A program made the translations under genes and the position numbers. The notes under the pieces are model-generated. The model ran no database searches, was not told where the DNA came from, and saw only the letters and a program-made list of their open reading frames with translations. This document shows positions 1 to 13,486 of a stretch of 13,486 nt of DNA, piece by piece; within the stretch, counting starts at the first letter, position 1, and every line of letters starts with the position of its first letter. The DNA is from a virus: the UHGV virus genome UHGV-1760545. One strand, written 5' to 3'.

Positions 1-119
1 TCCTCATACCAGTTTTTTCCGTCTTCGGACCATAACCAGATAACATCAAAATTCTTTGTTAGCTGATATTGTTCTTTTGTTTTTGGATTACCTGACTTAA
101 TGTTCTTTAAATGCTGCAT
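1..119 (-). CDS. G: tail fiber assembly protein gpG, N-terminal fragment (truncated by window edge)
   Basis: Not in the ORF track (runs off the window). Manual minus-strand translation from ATG at 119..117, 3 nt after the H stop, gives [39 protein letters not shown] with no stop to nt 1. Position immediately downstream of H matches the P2 H-G arrangement; AT-rich like the 3' end of H. Confidence 0.7.
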
Positions 120-122
120 AAC

Positions 123-2132
123 TTACACCTGCGCAACGTTATACCATGTGCCATTGATGTATTTTTGTATCGGCCTGAAGATGGCTTCATCATCGCCATC
201 TACTTCACCAATGATTCTTAATCCGGTAATCGTGTGTCCGGCTTTTTCATAACGACCACCTCGCGCCATCAATTGAACAACTCGCGTACCCAGGCGAACA
301 TCTTTCACATAGCGGGAATCAAAATTCCCCCAGTTGCTGGGTTGCATCTGACCGTTAACAGCAAATATTACCGAGTTATCTGTATTTCGCTGGCTATAGA
401 AATGCCATCCGGCCTCATCGCCTAACTCTGCAACCACTGGACGGGTGGAAGTACCCCATAAATTAAAGGTAATATTCTTCGTGGATGTGTTAGAGCTGGA
501 TAGCGAGAACTTTTTACTATCCCCTGCCTGAATATTTTTAAAAGCAATAGCCACTCCATTCTGAAAACGGAATACACGCTGACTGTTAGCATAAACATCA
601 AGAATACCGTCTCCATTCTGTTTAAATCCGGTATCATTATCACCAAGAACAATAGAGCTACCACCTAGTGCATTCGTCGTACCAACTCCAAAACAGCCAT
701 TAATGACGGCATTAACAAGAATATTTAGTGCATCCCATTTCAACGTCATCAGGTCTTTTGTTGTGGTACTCTGGCGGCTTCTCCATTTGAAATATTCATT
801 GCCGTTATCCCCCGTTTCAAACCACATGTATGAATCAGTGTCACCATCGGCATCATTTTTAAATCCAATCTTCGCCCAGTCAGTATTTCGAATCCAGGCA
901 AGGATTGAGTCGTTTTCAAAAGTAAGCCCGCCGGACAAAGTATCGCCATTTTTTTGCACGGCGTTCCCGGCTCGGTTTACCGTTTCCTGTAAACCGAGAT
1001 ATTCGATAACAGCGGCAACGGTCGATTTCGCAAGAATATCTCGCCCGACTTTTGTCAGGATTGCCAGGCTGGCAACATCATTCCCCGTAAAATACGGAAA
1101 CCTGTCTGCCGCAGTAGCAAGCCCCGCCAGCGCCGTCAAAGTGGCATCTTTCGGTTGCTTACCCGCAAGCGCATTAGTCATGGTGGTAGCAAAATTCGGG
1201 TCATTGCCCAGCGCCGCCGCCAGCTCGTTCAGCGTATTCAGTGCGTCAGGCGACGAGTCTACAAGGGCGGCAATCGCGGCCATAACGAAAGCCGTGTTTG
1301 CGATCTGAGTATTATTCGTTCCCTGTCGCGCAGTTGGCGTCGTTGGCGTTCCGGTCAGTGCAGGACTGTTTAATGGCGCTTTTTTGTTCGTTTCATCCAT
1401 TACCGTCTTAACAGCTTTTGGTGTTGCCGCAAGCGTTTCAGACGTGCTGTTGGTCGCACTACTGAGCTGAACAAGGCCTTTTCGCGCCGTAGTGGCATCC
1501 TGCGCAGTATATTTCCCGTTAGCAAGGTCATATGCGGCCTTTACCGCTTTCGGCGTTGCGGCGAGCGTTTCAGACGTACTGTTGGTCGCACTGCTTAACT
1601 GAGTAAAACCTTTTGCGGTCAGCGAGGCGTCCGGGTGACGTCGTGACTGTTCATGCTCTGCAATCTTGTCATCAACGTAATCCTGCGTTGCCATCACTGT
1701 TGTGGTGTCAATGGTCAGCTCCACTGAGGCCACACTGCTGACGATAATGACCATGCGACAGGTCTGCGAACGCCCTGAGCCTTCGGCAAGAGCTGGCTTA
1801 TAACTTTCGGCCATGTTCGCCACGGCAATTAACGTTCCCGCATCATCGTACAGGCCAAGCTCACGCATCCAGAAACCGCCCACCTCCGGCGGAATAACCA
1901 GCTCTGCGATAATATAATTACTGTTTCGTTTGTCCTGGCTGATTTTGTTCAGCGCATGTCGCCAGACTTCGTGGATAAGCCCGGTCTGTCCGGCATCCGG
2001 AACAGGCAATTTACCACCGCCATCCCCGACGGCCATCGTGGTAATGTTGACCTTCCGCCCTCCCGGTGCGGTTGCCGCTGCCAGCTTTGCTGCACCGGCA
2101 GTGGTGATAACGGTTTTGAATTTTGTGCTCAT
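123..2132 (-). CDS. H: tail fiber protein gpH (conserved N-terminal domain, variable C-terminal receptor-binding part)
   Basis: 669-aa ORF starting MSTKFKTVITTAGAAKLAAATAPG..., recognised as a P2 H-type fiber. ATG at 2132..2130 preceded by GAGGA; TAA stop at 125..123. Position after baseplate gene I. Confidence 0.92.
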   Translation of the reverse strand: MSTKFKTVITTAGAAKLAAATAPGGRKVNITTMAVGDGGGKLPVPDAGQTGLIHEVWRHALNKISQDKRNSNYIIAELVIPPEVGGFWMRELGLYDDAGTLIAVANMAESYKPALAEGSGRSQTCRMVIIVSSVASVELTIDTTTVMATQDYVDDKIAEHEQSRRHPDASLTAKGFTQLSSATNSTSETLAATPKAVKAAYDLANGKYTAQDATTARKGLVQLSSATNSTSETLAATPKAVKTVMDETNKKAPLNSPALTGTPTTPTARQGTNNTQIANTAFVMAAIAALVDSSPDALNTLNELAAALGNDPNFATTMTNALAGKQPKDATLTALAGLATAADRFPYFTGNDVASLAILTKVGRDILAKSTVAAVIEYLGLQETVNRAGNAVQKNGDTLSGGLTFENDSILAWIRNTDWAKIGFKNDADGDTDSYMWFETGDNGNEYFKWRSRQSTTTKDLMTLKWDALNILVNAVINGCFGVGTTNALGGSSIVLGDNDTGFKQNGDGILDVYANSQRVFRFQNGVAIAFKNIQAGDSKKFSLSSSNTSTKNITFNLWGTSTRPVVAELGDEAGWHFYSQRNTDNSVIFAVNGQMQPSNWGNFDSRYVKDVRLGTRVVQLMARGGRYEKAGHTITGLRIIGEVDGDDEAIFRPIQKYINGTWYNVAQV
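1407..1604 (-). repeat. imperfect direct repeat inside H: two ~66-nt copies (about 1407-1472 and 1539-1604), 132 nt apart
   Basis: Aligning 1414-1470 with 1546-1602 gives 49/57 identical bases. The copies encode the duplicated peptide QLSSATNSTSETLAATPKAVK at H residues 177-198 and 221-242. Confidence 0.8.
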
Positions 2133-2142
2133 TATTCCTCAC

Positions 2143-2673
2143 TTATCCGGGGTAAACCGTAATTACATCGCCGTCGTAAGCCACACCACCGGCGAACAGG
2201 TAGCCGGGAATGTCCCGGGTAATGTTCAGGCCAATAAGGTGGCGGCTTGCAGGTTTGGCATCAGCAATCAGCCGTTCCATTTCCTGATACATTGCCTCTG
2301 TGATGCCGCTTTCCAGTACGCCAATATCAAGCCGGAAGGTGCCTGGCGGGTCACTGGTTTCCCACCACTCCGTCACGTTGATGAGATAGCCCAGCGGCTC
2401 CACCACACGCCGGATTGCACCTATAGTGCCTTTATGACAGTGGATGAAATAGGCATCGCGAATAACGGCGCGTTTGGTCGCTTCCGGCCACTTTTCATCC
2501 CATCTGTCGACCGAAAACGCCCACGCCAGCCACGGCAGCAGATTTGCCGGGCAGGTGTCCGGGCTCCACAGCTCACGAATACTGACCGGCGTTTTTTCAA
2601 TTTCCGCACAGGCTTTTGCAGCGGCGACTTCAAGCGGTGATGAGCCGGTCGGCAGCAGGCGCGAATCACTCAT
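2143..2673 (-). CDS. I: baseplate assembly protein gpI
   Basis: 176-aa ORF MSDSRLLPTGSSPLEVAAAKA...; ATG at 2673..2671 overlaps the 3' end of J by 8 nt; lies between J and H as in P2. Confidence 0.9.
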   Translation of the reverse strand: MSDSRLLPTGSSPLEVAAAKACAEIEKTPVSIRELWSPDTCPANLLPWLAWAFSVDRWDEKWPEATKRAVIRDAYFIHCHKGTIGAIRRVVEPLGYLINVTEWWETSDPPGTFRLDIGVLESGITEAMYQEMERLIADAKPASRHLIGLNITRDIPGYLFAGGVAYDGDVITVYPG

Positions 2674-3574
2674 CCGAGCCTCCGGTCACGACGCGGTATT
2701 CGGTACAGAAAGACGCCTGCGTACTGTTGAGCACGATGTCGGCCAGCGGTGCAGCCAGTTCGACACGCTGCACGCCTTCCACATGCAAAGCGGCATAAAT
2801 GGCAGACAGACGGATGTCACGCCCCAGCCGGTGCTGTGCCGTGATATACGCTTCCAGTTTTTTCACGGCGGCAGCGCGGATGGGTTCGCTTTCGGGACCA
2901 GGGTAAAGGTAAAGCGTGGCGTTTATCTGGTATTCAACAATGGCGGCAGACTGCACGGTCACGCGGTCGGCCACCGGCCTGACGTCCTCGCCATTAAGGG
3001 CGTTACGCACCACGGCCAGCAGATCTTCGGATGCGACGCCGTTATTTTCACGTGACAGCACGGAGATAGTGACGCAGGCCGGAGACGGACTGGTGACAGA
3101 GATATCCGCGACACGCCCGTCGGCACTGCGACCATGATACTGATAGGCTCCCACCGACCCGGCGACGCTTAAGCCTTCAAACGCCTGCTGAATACGCAGA
3201 CGATAATCGGTGTCAGACTCCATCACTGCCGGTGTCGGCGGGATGGTCGAATCATCTGCCGGGGTGATAGTCAGGCGCGTGGTGTTGTAATTGGCACCAA
3301 TCACATCAAGGTCATTACCGGCGGCACAGGCCAGCATCACCGCCCGCGCAGCCTCATTCACACGCTGACGCCAGATAAGCTCACGATAAGCATTTTCCTC
3401 CAGCAGTTTGACGAGAGGCTCGGATTCCAGCGTCAGGGTACGGGCGACCGCCTCCTGCTGGTCTTCCGGGTAAAGGGAAATCAGTGTCGCCTTGCGTTCG
3501 GCAAGAATGGTTTCAAAGTCCAGCTCCTCGACCACATCCGGTGCGGGTAGCTGGTTCAGGTCGATAATCGGCAT
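2666..3574 (-). CDS. J: baseplate assembly protein gpJ (T4 gp6-like wedge protein)
   Basis: 302-aa ORF MPIIDLNQLPAPDVVEELDFETILAERKA...; ATG at 3574..3572; TGA at 2668..2666; position between W and I. Confidence 0.9.
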   Translation of the reverse strand: MPIIDLNQLPAPDVVEELDFETILAERKATLISLYPEDQQEAVARTLTLESEPLVKLLEENAYRELIWRQRVNEAARAVMLACAAGNDLDVIGANYNTTRLTITPADDSTIPPTPAVMESDTDYRLRIQQAFEGLSVAGSVGAYQYHGRSADGRVADISVTSPSPACVTISVLSRENNGVASEDLLAVVRNALNGEDVRPVADRVTVQSAAIVEYQINATLYLYPGPESEPIRAAAVKKLEAYITAQHRLGRDIRLSAIYAALHVEGVQRVELAAPLADIVLNSTQASFCTEYRVVTGGSDE

Positions 3575-3578
3575 GGTT

Positions 3579-3926
3579 TCAACTCACAGGGATGGTTAAC
3601 GAAAGTGGCTGGCCGGTGTCGTTGTGCTGACCGGTTAACGTGACCGTCATTCGCCCGTCAAAACTGCGCGCCGTGGTGACGGATGACAGGGTGACGCGGG
3701 GTTCCCATTTCAGTACCGCCATGTAACAGGCGACCTTAATCTGCAACTCAAGCGCCGGAGTCTGCGGCTGGTCAATCATTGACGCCAGCAACGAGCCGTA
3801 ATCACGACGCATCACCCGTGAGCCGACCGGTGTGCGCAGGATATCGCCGATACTCTGGCTGATATGCTCAAGGTCAGTGACCGTCAGGCCATCACTGCGA
3901 TTCATTCCGAGATAACGCGCTGTCAT
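3579..3926 (-). CDS. W: baseplate wedge protein gpW (T4 gp25-like)
   Basis: 115-aa ORF MTARYLGMNRSDGLTVTDLEHISQSIGDILRTP...; its ATG (3926..3924) overlaps the V stop (3925..3923) as ATGA. Confidence 0.9.
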   Translation of the reverse strand: MTARYLGMNRSDGLTVTDLEHISQSIGDILRTPVGSRVMRRDYGSLLASMIDQPQTPALELQIKVACYMAVLKWEPRVTLSSVTTARSFDGRMTVTLTGQHNDTGQPLSLTIPVS

Positions 3927-4558
3927 AAAGGACTCCCGGTTGTGCCGCCGCTGTCGCCGGGGTGTTTGTGGGTATGCAGTACCTTACCGTTTGATGAGAG
4001 TTCACCGCCGGTGTGTTCAATGTTGCCGCGCATCGTCCCGCCCTTCTGCACTTCCAGCGTGCCGGTAGTCAGTTTGTTAGTGCAGACCACTTCCGGTGTG
4101 TCCAGGGTGACACGGGTTGACGCTTTCACCGTGACCACCGGTACCGTGGCAGTAACAGAATCAGAAGCCGTCACGCTGGCCGTTTTAATTCCGCTTACCG
4201 TGAGTGCACTGGTTTCGGGTTCATACTCAATCACCGCCCCGTCAGGGAAACGGATATGCAGGGCATCCGCCGACGCAGACGGCGGAGGGTTATCACCGGA
4301 ATAAATCCCCGGCAGAACGAACGCCGTGTCGAGTTCACCGCCCACGGCCAGAATCAGCACCTGTTCCCCCACGGAAGGTGCCCACCATGTGCGCGAACGT
4401 CCGGCGCGATGGGTCAGCCACTGAAGCCAGTCGGTGCACATGCCGCCGGTCTGCACACGGCAGCGACCGGCGTTAAGGTCGGTTTCGACGATAATGCCGG
4501 TGCGGATCATGTTGCGCAGTGCGCGCGCGAGTTCCTGAATATTTGCGAGAGTGTTCAT
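3923..4558 (-). CDS. V: baseplate spike / central hub protein gpV
   Basis: 211-aa ORF MNTLANIQELARALRNMIRTGIIVETDLNAGRCRVQTGGM...; ATG at 4558..4556; first gene after the S-V gap. Confidence 0.9.
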   Translation of the reverse strand: MNTLANIQELARALRNMIRTGIIVETDLNAGRCRVQTGGMCTDWLQWLTHRAGRSRTWWAPSVGEQVLILAVGGELDTAFVLPGIYSGDNPPPSASADALHIRFPDGAVIEYEPETSALTVSGIKTASVTASDSVTATVPVVTVKASTRVTLDTPEVVCTNKLTTGTLEVQKGGTMRGNIEHTGGELSSNGKVLHTHKHPGDSGGTTGSPL

Positions 4559-4570
4559 AACGGGAAGGAT

Positions 4571-4592
4571 GCCGCCGGGTCATACCGGCGGC
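4571..4592. other. perfect GC-rich hairpin in the S-V intergenic gap (8-bp stem GCCGCCGG / CCGGCGGC, 6-nt loop)
   Basis: Read directly: gccgccgg-gtcata-ccggcggc. Lies 33 nt downstream of the S stop and 13 nt upstream of the V ATG on the minus strand; no U-run follows, so it is not a canonical intrinsic terminator. Confidence 0.5.
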
Positions 4593-4624
4593 AATGTGAC
4601 GATGAGGTGTCGGGAATGGCACAA

Positions 4625-5077
4625 CTAACGGTCGAGGTGAGCCAGGATAATCTCTTCAATCATCTGCACATCCTCACCGGTAAAGCCGAGCAGAGGACGC
4701 GCCGGATAATCAATTTTCTTACCGTCTTTCCGGTTTTCTTCCGACAGACCGAACTGATGCACACTGGCGATTTTCGGTGACTTCCCGCCGTAAAATTCCA
4801 TTGATGCCTGTTCCGGGCTGGCGCGGATATGCAAAAAACGACTGGTGATAAGTTTCGCAAACATTTTTCGCTTAACGCGACCGGTCTTTTTTCTGGCGCT
4901 CTGCTGCTGGCGTGGCGCGTAGGGGGTGCCGTCCGGGGCTTTCTGTGCCATCACACGATGCTGCTGACTCTGCCGCAGACGTTTCGCCAGTTCGGCACTC
5001 AGTCGCCGACGCCCTGATGGTGACAGCGACTCAATCAGTCCGGTCAGCCGGTCTTCAAAACGCTTAAACTCATTCAT
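4625..5077 (-). CDS. S: tail completion protein gpS
   Basis: 150-aa ORF MNEFKRFEDRLTGLIESLSPSGRRRLSAELAKRLR...; ATG at 5077..5075 overlaps the end of R by 8 nt; TAG at 4627..4625. Confidence 0.9.
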   Translation of the reverse strand: MNEFKRFEDRLTGLIESLSPSGRRRLSAELAKRLRQSQQHRVMAQKAPDGTPYAPRQQQSARKKTGRVKRKMFAKLITSRFLHIRASPEQASMEFYGGKSPKIASVHQFGLSEENRKDGKKIDYPARPLLGFTGEDVQMIEEIILAHLDR

Positions 5078-5537
5078 CCCACTTACTCACCAGTTCACCA
5101 TTGATATAAAGCTCCATCGGGCGGGTGACCGGCTCCGGCGGCGGTGGTTCCGGGATATTCTTCACATGCAGCGCGCCGTCCACCTCACTGACCAGCGTGC
5201 GCTCGGTCAGCATCAGGCTGATGCTGATATCAAAGCTGCTGTCATTGTTGATGTCTGCATAAAACGTGAAGCCCTTTTTCTGGCCTTCGTCGGTGGTCAT
5301 GATGTCGGGCTGATTTTCCCGCAGCCACGCCAGCACCGGCACGATGAGCAGGTCAAAATCACCGGTAAAGTCGGTCACAATGACATTGAGCGTGTAACGC
5401 TTTTCGAATGACAGCGACGTCGCCAGTGTGGAGGCAATACTCCCGTTATCCACGAATATCCGCAGCATCTCTGGACTGGTTTTCAGCACCGTGACGGCAT
5501 CAGTCAGCGCCCTGCGCAGGCTGTCGGGTTTGAGCAT
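5070..5537 (-). CDS. R: tail completion protein gpR
   Basis: 155-aa ORF MLKPDSLRRALTDAVTVLKTSPEMLRIFVDNG...; ATG at 5537..5535; its first 38 nt overlap the 3' end of lysC. Confidence 0.9.
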   Translation of the reverse strand: MLKPDSLRRALTDAVTVLKTSPEMLRIFVDNGSIASTLATSLSFEKRYTLNVIVTDFTGDFDLLIVPVLAWLRENQPDIMTTDEGQKKGFTFYADINNDSSFDISISLMLTERTLVSEVDGALHVKNIPEPPPPEPVTRPMELYINGELVSKWDE

Positions 5538-5790
5538 CGTTTTCGTCCTGACAGTGTTTAATCATTTTTACCTGGCTGGCACAGCGTGCCAGCGCGTTCT
5601 CAAGCTGCCGGATATCAGCACTTAAATCGCCGTTCGTCTGCGGGTCACTGCCCGGCATCGGGCAAAGGCTCACTTTCGGGCAGGCGTTGGCGACAATCAC
5701 TGGCGTCTGCGCAGGCGGGGCGCTGGTGCAACCGGCGCACAGCATCAGGCAGGTCAGCGCCGTACCAGCGGCGAAAATCTTCGTTTTCAT
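5500..5790 (-). CDS. lysC: LysC, Rz1-like outer-membrane spanin lipoprotein, embedded out of frame in the 3' part of lysB
   Basis: The track ORF 5500..5907 contains an internal ATG at 5790..5788 preceded by GAGG, giving a 96-aa product MKTKIFAAGTALTCLMLCAGCTSAPPAQTP... with a signal-peptide-like N-terminus, lipobox-like LCAGC and a Pro-rich mature region. It overlaps lysB (5645..5790) in another frame. Confidence 0.85.
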   Translation of the reverse strand: MKTKIFAAGTALTCLMLCAGCTSAPPAQTPVIVANACPKVSLCPMPGSDPQTNGDLSADIRQLENALARCASQVKMIKHCQDENDAQTRQPAQGAD

Positions 5791-6070
5791 TAAGTAACCT
5801 CGTGATGGTTTTCTCGCGCTGTGCTTCACGCTTCGCGGCGTTCTCCAGTTCCTGACGCAGTGCCACCTGCGCCAGCTCGTTTTTGTCTGCCCTGGTGAGG
5901 GCAACATGAAGCTGATTTTTCAGCATGGTGATGGTCGTCTGCTGCCCGCTGGCGACGCTGTTCGCCCTGTCCAGTGAGGTGCGCAGTCTGGCGTTTTCAT
6001 GCTTCACCAGAAACAGCCCCGCCACCGCCAGCGATAACAACACGACCAGTGCAATCATCAGCTTTGACAT
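5645..6070 (-). CDS. lysB: LysB, Rz-like inner-membrane spanin
   Basis: 141-aa ORF MSKLMIALVVLLSLAVAGLFLVKHENARL... with an N-terminal transmembrane segment followed by a charged, coiled-coil-like region; ATG at 6070..6068 overlaps the lysA end by 13 nt. Confidence 0.88.
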   Translation of the reverse strand: MSKLMIALVVLLSLAVAGLFLVKHENARLRTSLDRANSVASGQQTTITMLKNQLHVALTRADKNELAQVALRQELENAAKREAQREKTITRLLNENEDFRRWYGADLPDAVRRLHQRPACADASDCRQRLPESEPLPDAGQ

Positions 6071-6483
6071 AGTTCCCGCCCCTCAAGACGCTGACGGCAG
6101 GCCGTGCGTATCAGCCGGAAAAACAGCGACGCCACGAGATAAATCAGCGCAGTAAAAATCCACCCGGCGGCAACCAGCGAGATAAACGTCGCCACCATCA
6201 CCACCAGAGCCGCCGCCCGTCTGCGCCACGGCACCGGCTGCAAAAACAGCGACGCGACAATCTTCACGGCCAGCGATTCCGGCGGCAGCTCCCGCCCGTA
6301 GCGTTCCAGCACATACTCAGTGGCATACACGCCGACACCACCGGCAACCACACAGATAACCGTCGCCAGAATCGCCCAGGTGGCGACAAAACTGACGGCC
6401 ACGCTCTGCGGGTAAATCAGGGACAGTGCCGGCATCAGCGCCAGCGACACGTTCAGCATCAGTGAAAGGGATAATTTCTTCAT
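6058..6483 (-). CDS. lysA: LysA, multi-pass membrane protein of the lysis cassette (lysis-timing / antiholin-like)
   Basis: 141-aa hydrophobic ORF MKKLSLSLMLNVSLALMPALSLIYPQSVAVSF... with several predicted transmembrane segments; sits between K and lysB as in P2. Confidence 0.88.
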   Translation of the reverse strand: MKKLSLSLMLNVSLALMPALSLIYPQSVAVSFVATWAILATVICVVAGGVGVYATEYVLERYGRELPPESLAVKIVASLFLQPVPWRRRAAALVVMVATFISLVAAGWIFTALIYLVASLFFRLIRTACRQRLEGRELCQS

Positions 6484-6497
6484 GGTGTTTACTCCGT

Positions 6498-6995
6498 TTA
6501 AGCCGGTACGCCGCCAGCGGTACGCCAGACGGTGACCAGTTTTTCCAGTGAATGCTCACGCTGACCGTAACCGGCTCCCGGCAGGGACGCCCAGATATTG
6601 CGACAGCGTGAAATGGCGCGCTCAATGCGTCCCGCCCGGATGTCATCCAGTGCACCGCGTTCGCGGATCAACTGAATGGCGAGTCTGTCCTGTGACAACG
6701 GACTGAAATCCGGCAGGGCAAGCTGTTTGCGGTAGTGCGGCCAGAACAGGTAAAGCTGCTGATAGCGACCGGAGGCCGTGGATTTTTCACCGCGACGGTT
6801 AAACACCTTCGCCGGTCGGCCATGCGCGAACGGGTGGTCACTGTAGTCGGTGAAAATTTCCGGCTTTCCGTCCAGTCCGGTGACTATCACGTCATAGCCC
6901 CGGTTTTTCGTCAGCGGATGGTTCGCCGTCCCTTCGGACACGGCCAGCATGTCGAGAAAGGCGGCGATATTCTGATGCGTGTTAATTACCGGCAT
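6498..6995 (-). CDS. K: endolysin gpK (lysozyme / lytic transglycosylase-like)
   Basis: 165-aa ORF MPVINTHQNIAAFLDMLAVSEGTANHPLTKNRGYDVIVTG..., resembling lambda R-family endolysins; its ATG (6995..6993) overlaps the Y stop (6997..6995) by 1 nt. Confidence 0.9.
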   Translation of the reverse strand: MPVINTHQNIAAFLDMLAVSEGTANHPLTKNRGYDVIVTGLDGKPEIFTDYSDHPFAHGRPAKVFNRRGEKSTASGRYQQLYLFWPHYRKQLALPDFSPLSQDRLAIQLIRERGALDDIRAGRIERAISRCRNIWASLPGAGYGQREHSLEKLVTVWRTAGGVPA

Positions 6996-7276
6996 TACTG
7001 TTTCCCCCTGCCCTTAAAACGGCGCTGAATGGCAATCTCAATCACCTGATAACCGGCGATACCCAGCATGGAGCCGATACCGCACACCGCAGGCAGTGAC
7101 AGGTCAGGAAACTGCACCAGAACAACACCGGCAACCATCGAGACAAAACCACCGAGCAACATGCGCCCGATAAACAGACGCGGGGTGATGGGTTCACCAC
7201 CGGCAAGCACCTTGCCGACAACAATCAGCACCCCAATCATGAAAAGCGACAGGACGCTTTTTTCTTCTGCTGTCAT
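6995..7276 (-). CDS. Y: holin gpY
   Basis: 93-aa ORF MTAEEKSVLSLFMIGVLIVVGKVLAGG... with hydrophobic transmembrane segments and a basic C-terminus (RRFKGRGKQ); directly upstream of the endolysin. Confidence 0.9.
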   Translation of the reverse strand: MTAEEKSVLSLFMIGVLIVVGKVLAGGEPITPRLFIGRMLLGGFVSMVAGVVLVQFPDLSLPAVCGIGSMLGIAGYQVIEIAIQRRFKGRGKQ

Positions 7277-7279
7277 GCG

Positions 7280-7483
7280 TTACTCCCACAGATTGACAGT
7301 TTCAGCCACGGGCGCGGTCTGAACGTCGGGCAGTTCGACGGCGGTGCCGTGTGGCAGCACCGCACCCAGTTCAGCCAGTCCCGGATTTGCGGCGAGCACG
7401 GTCTCAACCACGCCCTCAGTGCGCCCGTAATACCGGACACAAATGGCGTCGAGCGTGTCGCCCTGTAGCGCAAAGGTCTTCAT
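7280..7483 (-). CDS. X: tail protein gpX
   Basis: The track ORF 7280..7552 is an over-extension. The internal ATG at 7483..7481 gives a 67-aa product MKTFALQGDTLDAICVRYYGRTEGVVETVLAANPGLAELG... and overlaps the L stop (7485..7483) by 1 nt. Confidence 0.88.
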   Translation of the reverse strand: MKTFALQGDTLDAICVRYYGRTEGVVETVLAANPGLAELGAVLPHGTAVELPDVQTAPVAETVNLWE

Positions 7484-7992
7484 CAGATTTGACTCACGAT
7501 GCAGCGCGGCTTGTCCTGGATGCGCGCCACTGCCCAGCGCATATCCCGCCACAGCTCATCAATGGTGCTGTCAATGCTGTCGGCCTTCTTGTCGCCTTTC
7601 GCACTGGCATCCACACCGCGATAACGTTCATAAAGCGACGCGGTCGCCATCGCACACACGGCGCGCTCGTAGTAAAAAACTTTGATGCTTTCACCGTCGA
7701 TGTCGTCCGCCGGGACGTCCGCCAGACGCGTAAAACCGGCGGCAATTTTCTGTTCGCGGTACTCGTACAGCTCCGCATTCGTCTCCGCCATGCCTGACTT
7801 GATGGCCTCACGCAGACGGGCGGGGGCGACGGTCTGCTCAAGGCGCATACGTTCCCGGACGCGCTTCGGGTCGATATCGGGAAAAAAGAACGTGTTTTTA
7901 ATCACCGGCTCGTCGCCTGCCGGTTGCGGGATGACCACCGTACCCTCACCGGACACGGGAGCCTCCTTTCGCGGAATAATCAGCGTCATCAT
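7483..7992 (-). CDS. L: head completion / stabilisation protein gpL
   Basis: The track ORF 7483..8052 is over-extended. The ATGATG at 7992..7987, preceded by GAGGT, gives a 169-aa product MMTLIIPRKEAPVSGEGTVVIPQPAGDEPVIKNTFFFPDIDPK... Confidence 0.88.
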   Translation of the reverse strand: MMTLIIPRKEAPVSGEGTVVIPQPAGDEPVIKNTFFFPDIDPKRVRERMRLEQTVAPARLREAIKSGMAETNAELYEYREQKIAAGFTRLADVPADDIDGESIKVFYYERAVCAMATASLYERYRGVDASAKGDKKADSIDSTIDELWRDMRWAVARIQDKPRCIVSQI

Positions 7993-8010
7993 GACTACCT
8001 CTGAAAAGTC

Positions 8011-8069
8011 GGGCGGTGGACGCCGGTGCAGTGTCAGGTGATTCACCCTCACTGACCGGCGTGCCGCCC
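8011..8069 (-). terminator. candidate attenuator: GC-rich imperfect hairpin plus short U-run in the M-L intergenic gap
   Basis: Plus-strand 8011-8031 (gggcggtggacgccggtgcag) is an imperfect inverted repeat of 8052-8069 (ctgaccggcgtgccgccc), giving about 16 paired bases in blocks of 6, 7 and 3. On the minus-strand mRNA the stem is followed 3 nt later by UUUU (plus 8004-8007), then GAGGT and the L start. Structure is read from sequence; function is inferred. Confidence 0.4.
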
Positions 8070-8091
8070 TGGCGCGGGGCGCATTCGGTTG

Positions 8092-8835
8092 TTAACTGGC
8101 TTTCTTTTTCGGGCGTCCACGTTTTGCCGGTGTCACGCTCCGGATCTTACGCGGGGCGCGGGTGGCCGCTTTGGGCTGCGGCTCCGGCTTCGGTTTCAGC
8201 TCCCGCTCCAGTCGTTCAATCTCTTTTTTGACGCCTGCCTGACAGTCGAGCTGTGTCGCACGTTGCAGGTGAGCCAGCGCACCGGCGGCATCACCACCGT
8301 CACGCAGAAACAGACCGGTGATTTTGTGCAGCTTTGCGCGCACTTCATCAGGCATGTCAGCCGTGGCGGTCAGTTCAAGGGTCTCCGTCAGCAGGCGGGT
8401 ATCCACAGACTCACCGGCAGCGTGGGCACGCATGGCCGCAAGCGCTACCTCCTCGGTGAACATGTACGGCGGGGTACGGCGGTGTTTACCCGGCATGGTC
8501 AGACCGTACTTCAGGGCATAACGGGCAATCTCCAGCGCACCGGCAATATCGCCGGTATCCAGACGCCACAGCATGACCGTCATCAGAATGTCATCCTGTG
8601 CACCTTTGCCCTGCTCCAGCACGCCGTTCACCCACGGCAACCAGAACGGCAGCAGTTCGCGTTTTTTCGCGGCCTTCAGCTCTTTTGAATAAATCGCTTT
8701 CAGTGTGCGCTGGTCTGCGGCGAGCTTAACCAGCATCTGCTCATAGACAGTTGCATGTCGCAGCGGGGCGGCTTCCCGCTGCGCGGTCATCGCTGCCGAG
8801 ACCCGCATCATGTGGCGCTGTGCGGGACTCGTCAT
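8092..8835 (-). CDS. M: terminase small / endonuclease subunit gpM
   Basis: 247-aa ORF MTSPAQRHMMRVSAAMTAQREAAPLRHATVYEQMLVKLAADQRTLKAIYS... with a basic C-terminal tail (KRGRPKKKAS); ATG at 8835..8833, 3 nt after the N stop. Confidence 0.9.
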   Translation of the reverse strand: MTSPAQRHMMRVSAAMTAQREAAPLRHATVYEQMLVKLAADQRTLKAIYSKELKAAKKRELLPFWLPWVNGVLEQGKGAQDDILMTVMLWRLDTGDIAGALEIARYALKYGLTMPGKHRRTPPYMFTEEVALAAMRAHAAGESVDTRLLTETLELTATADMPDEVRAKLHKITGLFLRDGGDAAGALAHLQRATQLDCQAGVKKEIERLERELKPKPEPQPKAATRAPRKIRSVTPAKRGRPKKKAS

Positions 8836-8838
8836 CGG

Positions 8839-9912
8839 TTACGCTCCCGGCTCTGCGGTCGCTTTAGCCAGTGTGGAGAAATCACCGACCTTAATTTTTT
8901 CCACCAGACAACCGGCGGCGTAGTCTTCCACCACGTAATCAATGTTCATTGACTCGTAGTTCTCCACGCGGTCAAGTTTCGGGTTTTCCTCAATCACGCG
9001 GCGATGACTGTCATCCATGTAGTAGATGGACAGGTTTTCCAGCTTCGTGATGAGCATCGCATCCGCCGGGAAGTACGGGACGCGTACCGCCGGCAGGTTA
9101 CCGATGCGTTTCTGGCTGATGATGACGTCAGCGGCCAGCATTTCGCTGTTGTCCTGCTCCTTGTTGACGATGGGGAAATACTTGTCTGCCAGTAGCTGAC
9201 GTCCCACAATCACCACAAGGTCAGGGTCTTCCTGATACCACGGCTCAATCAGGTTGTTGGTCGCATCCATCACCAGTGCATCAAGGCTGGCATAATCACC
9301 GCCCTTACCCACGCGGATGACCTCAGAGGTGGTGTGCCCTTCCTCGTCAGTGACCTTGCTCATCACGCGCGCAGGGGCTTCATTGCGGTATTTCTGCAGC
9401 CAGCCGACCGCCACATCCTGCAGCATCGGATTGCTGCTGCGGTCAGAGGTTTCGGCACGCTTCACGCCGTTAAAACCGGCCATGATGAAATCAAGGGACT
9501 GGCGTTTGATAATGGCGTTACGGATACGGAGCTGGAAATCCTGATAACGCGCCCACAGATCCAGCGTTTTGTAGCGGATATAAAAATCGAAGTTAATCTG
9601 GTCGCATTCGTACTTGTTTGACGCCAGCTTCGAGAAGTCCTTCGGCTGACGCTCGGTGCCACCGGCGGTGTCGGTGGTGCTGGCGATGGAGCCGGTGACA
9701 CCAATACCAATTTTTTCCCCTTTCATTTCGCTGACCGGCACAATGTTGATGCGGGTCAGAAAATCAGAGGACTCCTGCATGGTGTTCATCAGGGTCTGGG
9801 TGACCGACGGTTCAACGGTGAATTTTTTCGACACATCACCGGCGTCGATGCCGTTCAGTTCGGCAACACGGGACAGGTAGGCATTAAATTTAAAGCGGGT
9901 TTCCTGGCGCAT
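8839..9912 (-). CDS. N: major capsid protein precursor gpN
   Basis: 357-aa ORF MRQETRFKFNAYLSRVAELNGIDAGDVSKKFTVEPSVTQTLMNTMQESSDFLTRINIVPVSEM...; ATG at 9912..9910 preceded by AGGAAA. Confidence 0.93.
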   Translation of the reverse strand: MRQETRFKFNAYLSRVAELNGIDAGDVSKKFTVEPSVTQTLMNTMQESSDFLTRINIVPVSEMKGEKIGIGVTGSIASTTDTAGGTERQPKDFSKLASNKYECDQINFDFYIRYKTLDLWARYQDFQLRIRNAIIKRQSLDFIMAGFNGVKRAETSDRSSNPMLQDVAVGWLQKYRNEAPARVMSKVTDEEGHTTSEVIRVGKGGDYASLDALVMDATNNLIEPWYQEDPDLVVIVGRQLLADKYFPIVNKEQDNSEMLAADVIISQKRIGNLPAVRVPYFPADAMLITKLENLSIYYMDDSHRRVIEENPKLDRVENYESMNIDYVVEDYAAGCLVEKIKVGDFSTLAKATAEPGA

Positions 9913-9970
9913 AGTTTTTCCTGAAATTAAGGGTTAATCGTGAAGGTTTTCCCGGACTGACTGACGCCGG

Positions 9971-10825
9971 TCAGCAGTTCGTCATCAGGGCGTCACCGCC
10001 ACCGCCGGTGGCCTTGCTGCGGCGCTGCTGGGTCAGACTTTCGGTATGGTCGAGGCTGTTTTTCAGGCGGGTGAATGCCTGGCTGGTTTCATCCGCCCTG
10101 TCAGCTACATCCTGCTTAAGTGCGGAAAAGGCGGTTTCCATCTCTGCGAGGCGCTGCTCAGTGGCGCTCAGTTTTTCCTGCACATGCTCAGCGACAGCGG
10201 TCACCGCTTCATGCACGTCATTCAGACGGGCGTCATCGCTGGCCTGTTTGCGGCCAAAAATGGATTTCACCTTTTCGGTCAGGGCTGTGAACACGGTTTC
10301 AGGCAGGTCTTCAAATTCCAGCTCAACAGGCGTTGCCACTGAAATCAGGTTTTCAGGGCTTAATTTGAAGCGGTTCAGGGGGTTGTGTTTTGCCGTGCGG
10401 CAGAATTCCAGGTATTCCGTGCCGAGGCTTGCCGGGTCATCGGTGACGGCCAGACCCACCAGATAACATTTGCCGGTGTTGGCAAAGTTCGGCTGAATTT
10501 CCATTGAGGTGTAGACCTTCTGCGCGGCCTTGTTCATCGCGATAAGGTCATCGGTCGGGGTGATTTTCGCAAACAGCGCCCATTTGCCTTTCAGCGCCGA
10601 ATCATCGTCAATCTTTTCGGCCTTCAGTTCGGCCACATCACCATAACGTTTAAAAATACCGTCAGGCAGGATGCCGCGCAGATGTTCCAGGTTAATACGG
10701 CAACCATAGACACGCGGGTCAAAGGTTTCGGCCATTTCCTGAATATCCTGCGCACTGATGACACGCCCGTCACAGGTGTCACCCTCAACGCCGATACGAA
10801 AGAATTTTGAGACTTTTTTTGCCAT
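9971..10825 (-). CDS. O: capsid scaffolding protein gpO (scaffold with N-terminal protease in P2)
   Basis: The track ORF 9971..10891 is over-extended. The ATG at 10825..10823 gives a 284-aa product MAKKVSKFFRIGVEGDTCDGRVISAQDIQEMAETFDPRVYG...; first gene of the leftward capsid operon. Confidence 0.9.
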   Translation of the reverse strand: MAKKVSKFFRIGVEGDTCDGRVISAQDIQEMAETFDPRVYGCRINLEHLRGILPDGIFKRYGDVAELKAEKIDDDSALKGKWALFAKITPTDDLIAMNKAAQKVYTSMEIQPNFANTGKCYLVGLAVTDDPASLGTEYLEFCRTAKHNPLNRFKLSPENLISVATPVELEFEDLPETVFTALTEKVKSIFGRKQASDDARLNDVHEAVTAVAEHVQEKLSATEQRLAEMETAFSALKQDVADRADETSQAFTRLKNSLDHTESLTQQRRSKATGGGGDALMTNC

Positions 10826-10998
10826 TGTCAGGAGTCCTGAATAGTGATTAGAGGAGTCACATGTCGGCATCAGTTTCCCGACGATGCGCATCCTCCGCCA
10901 TCAGTCCCGGATGGCTTATCACTGACACAACAGCACCTTAGCGAATCGCAGGGCGCGACTCAGTAGCCTTGCCGTGTATTCATCACGGCGAGGTATTC
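10826..10998. promoter_or_regulatory. divergent control region between O (leftward) and P (rightward); expected site of the activator-dependent late promoters P_O and P_P
   Basis: 173-nt gene-free gap between two divergent ATGs. It contains dyads GTCGG-N10-CCGAC (10863-10882) and GCCAT-N9-ATGGC (10897-10915), the perfect palindrome GATGCGCATC (10883-10892), and hairpin GCCGTG-tattcat-CACGGC (10971-10989) just upstream of the P ribosome-binding site. I could not find an exact TGT-N12-ACA match, so promoter positions are not assigned. Confidence 0.5.
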
Positions 10999-12771
10999 AT
11001 GACCATCACCACAGACACCACTCTTTTACACGACCCGCGTCGTCAGGCGGCGCTGCTGTACTGGCAGGGTTTTTCCGTGCCGCAGATTGCCGCCATGTTG
11101 CAGATGAAACGCCCGACGGTGCAGAGCTGGAAACAGCGCGACGGCTGGGACAGCGTTGCCCCCATCAGCCGTGTCGAAATGAGTCTGGAAGCGCGGCTGA
11201 CCCAGCTCATCATCAAACCGCAGAAAACCGGCGGTGATTTCAAGGAAATTGACCTGCTGGGACGCCAGATTGAACGACTGGCGCGGGTCAACCGCTACAG
11301 CCAGACCGGCAACGAGGCAGACCTTAATCCGAACGTCGCTAACCGCAACAAAGGCGGGCGGCGCAAACCGAAAAAGAATTTTTTCAGTGACGAGGCCATC
11401 GAAAAGCTGGAGCAGATTTTCTTTGAGCAGTCTTTCGAATATCAGTTGCACTGGTATCGCGCCGGGCTTGAGCACCGCATCCGCGATATCCTGAAATCCC
11501 GCCAGATTGGCGCGACGTTTTATTTTTCCCGCGAGGCGCTGCTGCGCGCCCTGAAAACCGGTCATAACCAGATTTTTCTGTCGGCCAGTAAAACGCAGGC
11601 GTATGTGTTCCGCGAATACATCATCGCCTTTGCCCGGCTGGTTGACGTTGACCTGACCGGTGACCCGATTGTCCTGGGCAATAACGGTGCAAAACTGATT
11701 TTTCTCGGCACCAACTCCAACACCGCACAGAGCCATAACGGCGACCTGTACGTCGATGAGATTTTCTGGATCCCGAATTTTCAGGTACTGCGTAAGGTGG
11801 CATCAGGTATGGCCTCACAGAGTCACCTGCGCTCGACCTATTTCTCCACCCCGTCCACGCTGGCGCACGACGCCTACCCGTTCTGGTCGGGTGAACTGTT
11901 CAACCGGGGACGCGCCAGCGCCGCCGAACGCGTGGAAATCGACATCAGTCATAACGCCCTTGCCGGAGGTCTTCTCTGTGCGGACGGCCAGTGGCGGCAG
12001 ATTGTCACCATTGAGGACGCCCTGAAAGGTGGCTGCACGCTGTTCGACATCGAGCAGCTCAAACGTGAAAACAGCGCCGACGATTTTAAAAACCTGTTCA
12101 TGTGTGAATTTGTTGACGACAAGGCGTCGGTGTTCCCGTTCGAGGAGCTGCAACGCTGCATGGTCGACACGCTGGAAGAATGGGAAGACTATGCGCCGTT
12201 TGCCGCCAATCCGTTCGGCTCCCGCCCGGTATGGATTGGTTACGACCCGTCACACCGTGGCGACAGCGCCGGATGCGTGGTGCTGGCACCGCCGGTGGTG
12301 GCCGGTGGCAAATTCAGAATACTTGAGCGTCACCAGTGGAAAGGCATGGACTTTGCCACCCAGGCTGAATCCATCCGCAAACTCACCGAAAAATACAACG
12401 TCGAATACATCGGTATTGATGCCACCGGCCTCGGTGTCGGCGTGTTCCAGCTCGTGCGCTCGTTCTATCCTGCCGCGCGCGATATCCGCTACACACCGGA
12501 AATGAAAACCGCAATGGTGCTCAAGGCAAAAGACGTTATCCGCCGTGGCTGTCTGGAATATGACGTCAGCGCCACCGACATCACCAGCTCGTTTATGGCT
12601 ATCCGCAAGACCATGACCAGCAGCGGACGCAGCGCCACCTATGAGGCCAGCCGCAGCGAGGAAGCCAGCCACGCCGACCTCGCCTGGGCGACCATGCACG
12701 CCCTGTTAAATGAGCCACTCACCGCCGGTATCAGCACCCCGCTGACATCCACCATTCTGGAGTTTTACTGA
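10999..12771 (+). CDS. P: terminase large / ATPase subunit gpP
   Basis: The track ORF 10969..12771 begins at an upstream TTG. The ATG at 10999, preceded by GAGGT, gives a 590-aa product MTITTDTTLLHDPRRQAALLYWQGFSVPQIAAMLQMKRPTVQSWKQRDGWD...; its TGA (12769..12771) overlaps the Q ATG. Confidence 0.92.
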   Translation: MTITTDTTLLHDPRRQAALLYWQGFSVPQIAAMLQMKRPTVQSWKQRDGWDSVAPISRVEMSLEARLTQLIIKPQKTGGDFKEIDLLGRQIERLARVNRYSQTGNEADLNPNVANRNKGGRRKPKKNFFSDEAIEKLEQIFFEQSFEYQLHWYRAGLEHRIRDILKSRQIGATFYFSREALLRALKTGHNQIFLSASKTQAYVFREYIIAFARLVDVDLTGDPIVLGNNGAKLIFLGTNSNTAQSHNGDLYVDEIFWIPNFQVLRKVASGMASQSHLRSTYFSTPSTLAHDAYPFWSGELFNRGRASAAERVEIDISHNALAGGLLCADGQWRQIVTIEDALKGGCTLFDIEQLKRENSADDFKNLFMCEFVDDKASVFPFEELQRCMVDTLEEWEDYAPFAANPFGSRPVWIGYDPSHRGDSAGCVVLAPPVVAGGKFRILERHQWKGMDFATQAESIRKLTEKYNVEYIGIDATGLGVGVFQLVRSFYPAARDIRYTPEMKTAMVLKAKDVIRRGCLEYDVSATDITSSFMAIRKTMTSSGRSATYEASRSEEASHADLAWATMHALLNEPLTAGISTPLTSTILEFY

Positions 12772-13486
12772 TGAGCAAGAAAAAAGGGAAAACACCGCAA
12801 CCTGCGGCAAAAACAATCACCGCCAGCGCCCCGAAAATGGAGGCATTCACCTTTGGCGAGCCGGTGCCGGTACTCGACCGCCGTGACATTCTGGATTACG
12901 TCGAGTGCATCAGTAACGGCAGATGGTATGAGCCGCCGGTCAGCTTTACCGGTCTGGCAAAAAGCCTGCGTGCTGCCGTGCATCACAGCTCGCCGATTTA
13001 CGTTAAACGCAATATTCTGGCTTCAACGTTTATTCCGCATCCGTGGCTTTCTCAGCAGGATTTCAGCCGCTTTGTGCTGGATTTTCTGGTGTTCGGTAAT
13101 GCGTTTCTGGAAAAGCGTTACAGCACCACCGGTAAGGTCATCAGACTGGAAACCTCACCGGCAAAATATACCCGCCGTGGTGTGGAAGAGGATGTTTACT
13201 GGTGGGTGCCGTCCTTCAACGAGCCGACAGCCTTCGCGCCCGGCTCCGTGTTTCACCTGCTGGAGCCGGATATTAATCAGGAGTTGTACGGCCTGCCGGA
13301 ATATCTCAGCGCCCTTAACTCTGCCTGGCTGAATGAGTCGGCCACGCTGTTCCGCCGCAAGTATTACGAAAACGGCGCACATGCCGGATACATCATGTAC
13401 GTCACCGATGCCGTGCAGGATCGCAACGATATCGAAATGCTTCGCGAAAACATGGTGAAGTCGAAAGGCCGCAACAACTTTAAAAA
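12771..13486 (+). CDS. Q: portal protein gpQ, 3'-truncated at window edge
   Basis: Not in the ORF track (no stop inside the window). ATG at 12771 in a TGATG overlap with P; translation MSKKKGKTPQPAAKTITASAPKMEAFTFGEPVPVLDRRDILDYVECISNGRWYEPPVSF... continues open to 13486 (238 codons). Confidence 0.9.
   Translation, partial: MSKKKGKTPQPAAKTITASAPKMEAFTFGEPVPVLDRRDILDYVECISNGRWYEPPVSFTGLAKSLRAAVHHSSPIYVKRNILASTFIPHPWLSQQDFSRFVLDFLVFGNAFLEKRYSTTGKVIRLETSPAKYTRRGVEEDVYWWVPSFNEPTAFAPGSVFHLLEPDINQELYGLPEYLSALNSAWLNESATLFRRKYYENGAHAGYIMYVTDAVQDRNDIEMLRENMVKSKGRNNFK

Follow-up and report, generated by a model that had tools for sequence, protein, structure and literature searches.

The left end of the window (the whole stretch of viral DNA analysed, 13,486 nt) is very probably the place where the constant part of a P2-type tail fibre meets a transferable host-range cassette, the two being joined at an invertase-type site. 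The constant part, H residues 1-374, would provide baseplate attachment and the shaft. The cassette would comprise the C-terminal, receptor-binding 286 residues of H and the cognate chaperone gene G. The boundary is a 26-bp site of the type recombined by Gin/Cin/Hin-family DNA invertases. A sequence-only reading had proposed a horizontally exchanged H-G host-range cassette as in P2, Mu and P1; this proposal is supported by a break in G+C content and codon usage and by the split relatives of H.

The H-G region of P2 was reportedly recognized by Haggård-Ljungquist, Halling and Calendar in 1992 as having been exchanged horizontally with Mu and P1. The 1992 report (Haggård-Ljungquist et al., J Bacteriol 174:1462) is cited in PMC9594776 and PMC13100340.

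Gene layout and identity

The window is 97.6% identical to the late-gene region of P2, and this match identifies it as the same region of a P2-like phage or prophage. The order of open reading frames is that of P2, with the V-W-J-I-H-G baseplate and fibre operon, and the H-G portion (1-2199) is 97.5% identical to P2. The coordinates first given for the open reading frames were right: H occupies 123..2132 on the minus strand and encodes 669 amino acids, as does H of P2, and G starts in 119..1. The orf30 insertion that P2 carries between S and V is absent from the window. The following features are distinguished in H and G.

1..119, minus strand: G, tail-fibre assembly chaperone, first 39 codons; G+C 33.6%
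123..337, minus strand: conserved distal tip of the fibre, H 599-669; G+C 0.465, GC3 0.437
338..695, minus strand: hypervariable core of the cassette, H 480-598; GC3 0.345, the lowest of the gene
696..983, minus strand: conserved proximal domain of the cassette, H 384-479; G+C 0.444
984..1009, plus strand: putative orphan Gin/Cin-type crossover site, TTCCTGTAAACCGAGATATTCGATAA; codes for H 375-383 (VIEYLGLQE)
1010..1406, minus strand: constant part of the shaft, H 243-374; G+C 0.549; corresponds to Sc of P1/P7
1407..1679, minus strand: tandem phage tail fibre repeat units, H 152-242; PF03406
1680..2132, minus strand: P2-family-specific N-terminal domain, H 1-151; PF12571

H residues 1-151 match Pfam PF12571 (Phage_tail_fib, E = 9e-59), and PF03406 phage tail fibre repeats follow in two stretches (E = 3.4e-38). 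With this domain order, its position in the operon and its near-identity to P2 H, the gene product can be classed as a P2-type (Peduovirus) tail fibre. Only 3 nt separate the H stop codon from the start of G. The G fragment differs from P2 G at one position in 119 nt, and its residues 1-39 are identical to Mu U at 37 of 39 positions (95%). In full-length P2 G and Mu U, the match to Pfam PF02413 (Caudo_TAP) starts only at residue 40, and the 39-amino-acid fragment therefore has no Pfam match. The rest of G lies past the left edge of the window.

Composition break

The G+C counts from which the exchange was first proposed (40/120 at 1-120, 24/60 at 481-540, 26/60 at 841-900, 32/60 at 961-1020, 38/60 at 1201-1260 and 37/60 at 8101-8160) are exact. 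G+C is 0.427 at 1-1000 versus 0.569 at 1001-13486; for 1-983 it is 0.427, versus 0.572 elsewhere. All other 983-nt stretches range from 0.532 to 0.616 (mean 0.572, sd 0.020), which places 1-983 about 7 sd below their mean. The transition had been put at roughly nt 900-1000, and a single-changepoint likelihood scan over the whole window agrees, with a changepoint at nt 925 (log-likelihood gain 40; 2-lnL support interval 863-1109). The most likely changepoint is some 60 nt within the cassette and not exactly at the 26-bp site, which falls within the support interval.

The drop had been termed sharp. The break is real, but it has the form of a ramp of about 300 nt: in 200-nt windows G+C rises from 0.415 (701-900) through 0.47, 0.485 and 0.53 to 0.595 (1101-1300). 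Likewise, the 3′ part of H is compositionally unlike the rest, as was claimed, but the 5′ part is itself intermediate: residues 1-374 have a GC3 of 0.553 versus 0.673 in 15 other genes, and their overall G+C is 6.4 sd under expectation. In P2, the low-G+C stretch extends as far as the pF promoter, with 43.8% in G, 37.5% in the intergenic region and 32.8% in fun(Z).

The probability that the drop is a chance fluctuation of base composition is practically nil. Nothing beyond the general noise of 60-nt counts speaks for it, and it is refuted by the likelihood gain, by the distance of about 7 sd and by the recurrence of the same step in 84/84 sequences (see below). An alternative that makes the low G+C a by-product of amino-acid composition, in a beta-rich receptor-binding domain (Asn, Ser, Thr, Lys, Gly) with no separate history, accounts for part of the drop. 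GC1 and GC2 are 0.49 and 0.42 in the 3′ part of H versus 0.57 and 0.51 in residues 1-374, and from the amino acids by themselves G+C is expected to drop from 0.574 to 0.534, some 30% of what is observed. Codon choice makes up the other 70% or so (GC3 0.41 versus 0.67). When the amino acids of H residues 384-669 are encoded with codons as used in the 15 other genes, the expected G+C is 0.534; the observed value, 0.442, is 10.4 sd lower, and GC3 is 0.413 versus 0.665 expected. This deficit, the different relatives of the two parts of H and the five-fold difference in their divergence from P2 make an explanation by amino acids very improbable. The break in G+C and codon usage is thus highly significant at the place where it had been described.

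Relatives on either side of the junction

The two halves of H also differ in their relatives, in keeping with the exchange first proposed. The segment 1-960 matches P2-like phages and, at 85-94% DNA identity, Muvirus (Mu, D108, vB_YpM_3) and Punavirus (P1, P7, RCS47), as well as D6 and a 49-kb Yersinia phage. In the Mu-like and P1-like phages the DNA left of the site is situated within invertible segments. By contrast, full-length matches to 961-2132 are all from Peduoviridae, as are matches to the N-terminal 242 codons (1407-2132). The latter stretch is kept at 75-97% identity across Peduoviridae, including 186, PSP3 and SEN1, with no match to any Mu or P1 relative.

Partial matches outside the Peduoviridae do exist to the right of the site. 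The constant part of gene S (Sc) of P1 and P7 matches the shaft at ~70% DNA identity over 990-1382, starting exactly at their cix site; the 49-kb Yersinia phage, which is unclassified, is 93% identical up to nt 1470; and one short motif is shared with lambdoid phages and mycobacteriophages. The constant shaft is also found in Xuanwuvirus/P88-type phages.

At the protein level, a phmmer comparison of H with Mu S (PDB 5YVQ) gives E = 2e-82. The alignments pair H 375-516 with S 166-304 and H 485-668 with S 320-503. Residues 375-478 of H are almost the same as S 166-268, and the C-terminus of S is aligned with H 585-668. The solved Mu S-U structure represents the region homologous to the H cassette. 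The DNA is 85-93% identical to that of Mu, P1 and P7 at 1-337 and 696-1016.

The same split, indicating a history of its own for the cassette, is seen in comparison with P2 itself, where the I-H-G order is the same. The low-G+C part is 99.2% identical (0.8% divergence at 1-983), whereas the constant part of H has diverged by 4.1% (1010-2132; Fisher p = 1e-6) and the backbone of the window by 2.7%. For mismatch density, the changepoint falls at nt 926. P2, HQ103, R18C and Wphi all have this H-G arrangement. Among complete E. coli genomes, with at least 80% of the query covered, the constant part is found in 659, the cassette part in 202 and both in 135.

A 26-bp crossover site at the junction

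The junction of modules is a specific 26-bp crossover site of the invertase type at 984-1009. The sequence-only reading had placed the junction near H residue 390, which is close; the homology junction is actually at H 375-383. Homology to Mu S ends at window position 1016 and that to Muvirus vB_YpM_3 at 1009, and P1/P7 Sc starts at 990; these limits coincide with the annotated gix and cix sites. Both annotated boundaries of the Mu G segment read TTCCTGTAAACCGAGGTTTTGGATAA, and cixR of P1 reads TTCTCTTAAACCAAGGTATTGGATAA. Compared with Mu gix, the window site matches at 23 of 26 positions; the three differences are all in the right half-site, and the left half-site is unchanged, as is the central GA. 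The site is identical in P2. A second 26-bp site was found neither in the window, which runs to G codon 39, nor in the complete P2 genome; each has one copy.

The features of a fibre 3′ end with its chaperone are present, namely homology to S of Mu and P1, a Caudo_TAP gene next to it and the 26-bp site in frame. As in the Mu G and P1/P7 C segments, the variable part of the fibre starts at the 26-bp site and the chaperone gene comes directly after it. Unlike these segments, the P2 type lacks a second inverted site, an S′/U′ set and an invertase, and the N-terminal part of H in the window is P2-type (PF12571). Of the hallmarks of the Din-family invertible segments (Mu G, P1/P7 C, p15B Min, e14 P), the inverted site pair and the invertase are missing from the window and from P2, and the second S′/U′ set is missing from P2. 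A tblastn search with a Hin-like query (E up to 1) gave no invertase gene in the window or the P2 genome. No U′ or Sv′ remnant was detected by blastn (word size 7) in the 400 nt downstream of P2 G on comparison with the loci of Mu, P1, P7, vB_YpM_3, vB_YpM_41 and 503458. Since no remnant of a second cassette was found, it is solely the site and the relatives that suggest descent from an invertible ancestor. P2_AC1 alone matches the region downstream of P2 G, over 73 nt.

Intact invertible segments do occur within the Peduoviridae, for example in Xuanwuvirus 503458 and the IMG/VR contigs L010, L016 and L028. Their constant part is homologous, mostly at 79-90% over the aligned part, and their site is at the same codon position. 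They differ from the window in having an inverted partner site 2.65-3.2 kb off, a Hin/Gin-like invertase about 90 bp past the partner, and G rather than A at position 16 of the site. The two variants are distinguished by one synonymous base (TAC to TAT, Tyr). With the G variant, the inverted partner 2.65-3.2 kb away and the Hin/Gin-like gene are found in 11 of 18 contigs. Among contigs with at least 5 kb of flank, all 15 with the A variant, the type seen in the window, lack both inverted partner and invertase; these contigs represent one closely related H lineage, so the association is not phylogenetically independent.

The orphan site might be a live docking point, at which co-resident invertases (P1 Cin, Mu Gin, e14 Pin) occasionally swap or capture cassettes. 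Its left half-site and central GA, shared with Mu gix, would favour this, as would the single synonymous base that separates it from the variant found in segments with a partner site and an invertase. That base, however, is the second G of the GG beside the core, and G is present there in every other site examined. In addition, none of the 15 window-type contigs has a partner site or an invertase, several breakpoints are located away from the site (see below), and invertases of the Gin/Cin family have a strong preference for inverted sites within the same molecule. The probability of a live site is consequently judged to be low.

Older papers on P2 and P1 tail fibres probably noted the cix-like site in H already. 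A full-text literature search, with these older papers outside its scope, gave no explicit statement of a cix/gix-like site in P2 H.

Modules of the H gene

By its sequence relationships the cassette is a mosaic, with conserved ends flanking the hypervariable core at 338-695. The distal tip has a DNA identity of 85-93% to Mu S (over 1-158), P1 S (1-329) and P7 Sv′ (1-337), and aligns with the Mu S C-terminus (PDB 5YVQ) as far as residue 503. Judged by its homology to Mu S-U, it would be the chaperone-bound end. The proximal domain at 696-983 is 88% identical to Mu S in DNA and nearly identical in amino acids to S residues 175-268; Pfam PF21446 (Gp34_trimer) corresponds to H residues 419-481. 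In many contigs the stretch 696-983 is kept at ~91% identity while the sequence that follows is replaced.

The core, in contrast to the homologous ends, has no detectable DNA match to Mu, P1 or P7. Its GC3 falls to 0.22 at H residues 481-540. It is common to vB_YpM_3 and vB_YpM_41 at 89-97% identity, and only 38-52% identical to P2_AC1, although the constant part there is the same. Residues 480-598 are likely to be the determinant of specificity. On the constant side, a direct repeat (1407-1482 and 1539-1614) lies within the tandem repeat units, and the N-terminal domain presumably attaches the fibre to the baseplate.

Cassettes found at the site

Of 93 viral contigs that have the site and its two flanks, 89 show homology on the constant side beginning 1-3 bases past the site. 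On the variable side, homology is full, partial or absent, and 40 contigs give no match. When 83 viral contigs and the present window (n = 84) were clustered, seven variable-side clusters and four constant-side clusters were seen in 12 combinations. The variable side is lower in G+C in every one of the 84 (mean 0.449 versus 0.553), and all seven cassette clusters have a G+C of 0.43-0.47 whatever the carrier. In Mu-type contigs, too, G+C in the cassette is below that of its flanks.

Not all exchanges map to the site. In P2-type phages, the breakpoint of some cassette swaps is near nt 695/696, or the sequences part gradually from around nt 900. These off-site breaks are fitted at least as well by homologous recombination in the conserved flanks as by site-specific recombination.

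The survey bears on whether the cassette reached this particular phage recently, in a single event, from one identifiable low-G+C donor lineage that could be named by its G+C. The cassette is 0.8% away from P2 versus 4.1% for the adjoining part, which suggests a fairly recent exchange among P2-like phages, and P1-type phages are lower in G+C than the backbone of the window. Yet the H-G arrangement is that of P2, HQ103, R18C, Wphi and 135 complete E. coli genomes, and the seven cassette clusters are alike in G+C, with Mu-type cassettes below their own flanks as well. A single import of this kind is therefore considered unlikely. The naming of a donor lineage from G+C was dropped, because every alternative cassette at the junction is similarly AT-rich. 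The universally low G+C could reflect a shared pool of cassettes with a mutational and selective regime of its own, independent of the carrier.

Proposed explanation

The preferred explanation is a constant P2-type fibre part joined to a transferable cassette. Mu-like and P1-like phages, and some of the P2 family, have at the position of the site one end of a 2.6-3.2-kb invertible segment, which carries two alternative cassettes beside an invertase gene. The P2 type has one site, one cassette and no invertase, and the arrangement is therefore fixed. Cassettes are reassorted among unrelated phage families, probably via recombination at or near the site and in conserved stretches of the cassette. 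These stretches are 696-983 at one end, and the fibre tip with the 5′ end of the chaperone gene at the other. The most variable unit is the core, residues 480-598, which may set receptor specificity. Low G+C is a trait of the whole class of cassettes, independent of the carrier and due mostly to synonymous codon choice, and a step is therefore expected wherever a cassette abuts a more G+C-rich phage backbone.

Significance

The exchange of H-G with Mu and P1 has been a standard example of tail-fibre mosaicism since 1992, and in this respect nothing is scientifically new. The finding is useful in practice, since it correctly places the part of a P2-type phage that determines host range. Retargeting of engineered P2/P4 particles and of R-type pyocins is done by swapping the same part of H plus the chaperone. 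Among functional P2-P1(S′) chimeric fibres, the best fusion was at P2 H residue 370 with the cognate chaperone U′ (PMC9942202), and the natural junction at H 375-383 adjoins this empirically best fusion point. Two small additions are made to the known picture: a quantified survey (n = 84) in which the step in composition and the reassortment of cassettes are found repeatedly at the site, and low G+C as a class property of cassettes, which hence gives no donor name. Were the site in H to be live after all, invertase-less P2-type prophages would be able to capture new host-range cassettes site-specifically.

The P2 H-G locus

Phage P2 (AF063097, 506-14865, opposite strand) aligns end to end with the whole 13,486 nt window at 97.6% identity, and the P2-like phages HQ103 and Wphi match it at 97-98%. 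As the top match in a complete E. coli genome reaches 99.5%, the window is an ordinary P2-type prophage or phage. Its open reading frames follow the order of the P2 late region:

119 to the left edge of the window, minus strand, first 39 codons of G (tail-fibre assembly chaperone)
123..2132, minus strand, H (tail fibre), 669 amino acids
After H, minus strand, I, J, W, V, S, R, lysis genes, L, M, N and O
Plus strand, P

The left end is the P2 H-G locus, which belongs both with P2-type H genes and with the S-U cassettes of the Mu/P1 type. Further along, a 66 nt spacer between the S stop and the V start (4559-4624) carries a G + C-rich hairpin (GCCGCCGG...CCGGCGGC) and stands in place of P2 9370-10307, which contains the non-essential orf30, the O-operon terminator and an annotated pV activator-binding site.

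Base composition across H and G

The sequence-only reading described a fall in G + C content at the left end of the window, and its six counts are all exact on recount. G + C is 0.427 in positions 1-1000 and 0.569 in the remainder, and the drop is confirmed by a likelihood scan of the full 13,486 nt for a single changepoint, which places the break at nt 925 (2-lnL support 863-1109, log-likelihood gain 40). All other 983 nt stretches of the window have a G + C of at least 0.532 (mean 0.572, sd 0.020). The transition is a ramp of ∼300 nt, from 0.415 to 0.595 in 200 nt windows, with no knife edge.

When H residues 384-669 were re-encoded with codons used as in the other 15 genes, the predicted G + C was 0.534; the observed value, 0.442, is 10.4 sd below this, which rules out amino-acid composition as the sole source of the drop. 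GC3, expected at 0.665, is 0.413, and of the 13-percentage-point drop, ∼9 points are attributable to synonymous codon choice and ∼4 to amino-acid content. The constant part of H (1010-2132, residues 1-374) is intermediate, a feature that the earlier reading missed: its GC3 is 0.553 (0.673 for the other 15 genes), with G + C 6.4 sd under the amino-acid-based expectation.

In P2 itself (13857-17555) low G + C extends past G to the pF promoter, ∼3.7 kb in all, with 37.5% in the G-fun(Z) spacer and 32.8% in fun(Z); the window stops short of this region. The profile agrees with the recognised status of the Z-region, adjoining G, as a gene-acquisition hotspot of P2-like phages (PMC3091744).

Relatives of the two sides

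The proposal that the step marks a horizontally exchanged cassette is supported, as the matches differ between the two sides. Positions 1-960 are matched by P2-like phages and, at 85-94% identity, by Muvirus (Mu, D108, vB_YpM_3/23/Tongde), Punavirus (P1, P7, RCS47), D6 and a 49 kb Yersinia phage; in these non-P2-like phages the counterpart lies within invertible segments adjoining hin, gin or cin. Full-length matches to window 961-2132 are exclusively in Peduoviridae, and the N-terminal 242 codons of H (1407-2132) are 75-97% conserved across that family, as far as 186 and PSP3. In amino-acid sequence, H 375-478 and Mu S 166-268 are nearly identical, the C-terminus of Mu S (solved S-U complex 5YVQ) aligns with H 585-668, and Mu U is 95% identical to the visible 39 residues of G; P2 G and Mu U, taken at full length, both belong to the Caudo_TAP chaperones.

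Two other features of the constant part were observed. A direct repeat of ∼76 nt, in two copies ∼80% identical (1407-1482 and 1539-1614), corresponds to the Pfam PF03406 tail-fibre repeats, and its boundary coincides with the left edge (1407) of the Peduoviridae-wide conserved block. An 89 nt segment, 1183-1271 (H residues ∼288-316, motif DALNTLNELAAALGNDPNFATT), has counterparts of 78-82% DNA identity in ∼229 records of Mycobacterium phages (lowest E 3e-16), in tail or minor tail protein genes where annotated, and the lambdoid phage HK629 matches at 83.6% over 171 nt. The conservation of this fibre motif in DNA, between phages of very distant hosts, is striking.

A crossover site at the junction

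Homology breakpoints with other phages cluster at one place. DNA similarity to Mu gene S ends at 1016 and that to the Mu-like phage vB_YpM_3 at 1009; the constant part (Sc) of P1/P7 gene S shows ∼70% similarity beginning at 990. These breakpoints are the annotated G-segment boundaries in the Mu record and the cixR/cixL sites in the P1 and P7 records. Here the window carries a 26 bp Gin/Cin-type site (984-1009, TTCCTGTAAACCGAGATATTCGATAA), which falls inside the G + C changepoint support interval and codes for H residues 375-383 (VIEYLGLQE). The sequence is TTCCTGTAAACCGAGGTTTTGGATAA at each of the two Mu gix sites and TTCTCTTAAACCAAGGTATTGGATAA at P1 cixR; compared with gix, the left half-site and central GA are identical and all three differences are in the right half.

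The site occurs once in the window and once in the entire P2 genome, no invertase gene was found in either, and no remnant of a second cassette was found downstream of G in P2. Having a single site and lacking both an invertase and a second cassette, the locus fails as an invertible segment, and the defining features of a Din-type segment are absent.

A scan of IMG/VR for the site, with the observed right-half variants permitted, gave 120 loci, and at 93 of them both flanks were usable. Constant-side homology to the window sets in 1-3 bases past the site in 89 of these 93; the variable side shows full, partial or no homology, with no match in 40. Variable-side G + C is lower in all 84 full-flank sequences (83 contigs and the window; mean 0.449 versus 0.553), which makes the composition step a regular feature of the junction. 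Low G + C is a class property of these cassettes and cannot name a donor. The 84 fall into seven variable-side and four constant-side clusters, paired in 12 different ways.

The window-type site, with A at position 16, is found only with a P2-type constant part. The inverted partner and invertase are absent in 15/15 A-variant contigs whose flank is 5 kb or longer, an association that is not independent evidence because these contigs are one closely related lineage. With G at this position, an inverted partner 2.65-3.2 kb off, followed by a Hin/Gin-like gene, is present in 11 of 18 contigs. The difference is synonymous (TAC/TAT), and the base belongs to a GG adjoining the core that is kept in all other sites examined. 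The A-variant pattern is consistent with a half-segment that has become frozen and retains the site as a relic.

Some P2-family members, among them Escherichia phage 503458 (Xuanwuvirus; sites at 2306-2331 and 5020-5045) and the IMG/VR contigs L010, L016 and L028, have two inverted sites 2.65-3.2 kb apart, and a gene for a Hin/Gin-like invertase lies past the partner site in the IMG/VR contigs. Such loci resemble intact invertible fibre segments, at the position where P2 has the orphan site alone.

A mosaic cassette with its own history

The cassette is a mosaic in its own right. Positions 696-983 and 1-337 are conserved in Mu, P1 and P7; DNA similarity to these three is absent from the core between them, 338-695 (H residues 480-598), where GC3 is at its lowest, 0.345. 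Against P2_AC1, whose constant part is ∼97% identical to that of the window, the core reaches only 38-52% identity.

Within P2-like phages, mismatch patterns indicate a cassette history independent of the constant part. Against P2 there are 8 mismatches in 1-983 (0.8%) and 46 in 1010-2132 (4.1%; Fisher p = 1e-6), with a mismatch-density changepoint at nt 926. Among complete E. coli genomes, 659 have the constant part (coverage at least 80%), 202 the cassette part and 135 both contiguously. The constant part is also the segment most diverged from P2, as divergence elsewhere is 1.8-3.1%.

Modular exchange of the fibre

Exchange of the P2 H-G cassette is already known; a 1992 paper by Haggård-Ljungquist, Halling and Calendar has as its title the horizontal transfer of the P2 tail-fibre genes among unrelated phages. 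Modularity has been shown experimentally with chimeric fibres that complement a P2 ΔHG helper, and of the P2-P1(S') fusions, the best one joined at H residue 370 and had its cognate U' provided (PMC9942202). Lipopolysaccharide is the native cellular target of P2 (PMC9594776), and the Mu tail-fibre assembly protein, as summarised in PMC10579305, is reported to stay on the fibre tip and to contact the lipopolysaccharide receptor. Most likely, the constant part would attach the fibre to the baseplate, and the cassette would provide the receptor-binding end together with the chaperone that folds this end and remains on its tip. Exchange probably relies mainly on homologous recombination within conserved sequence around the variable core and the site.
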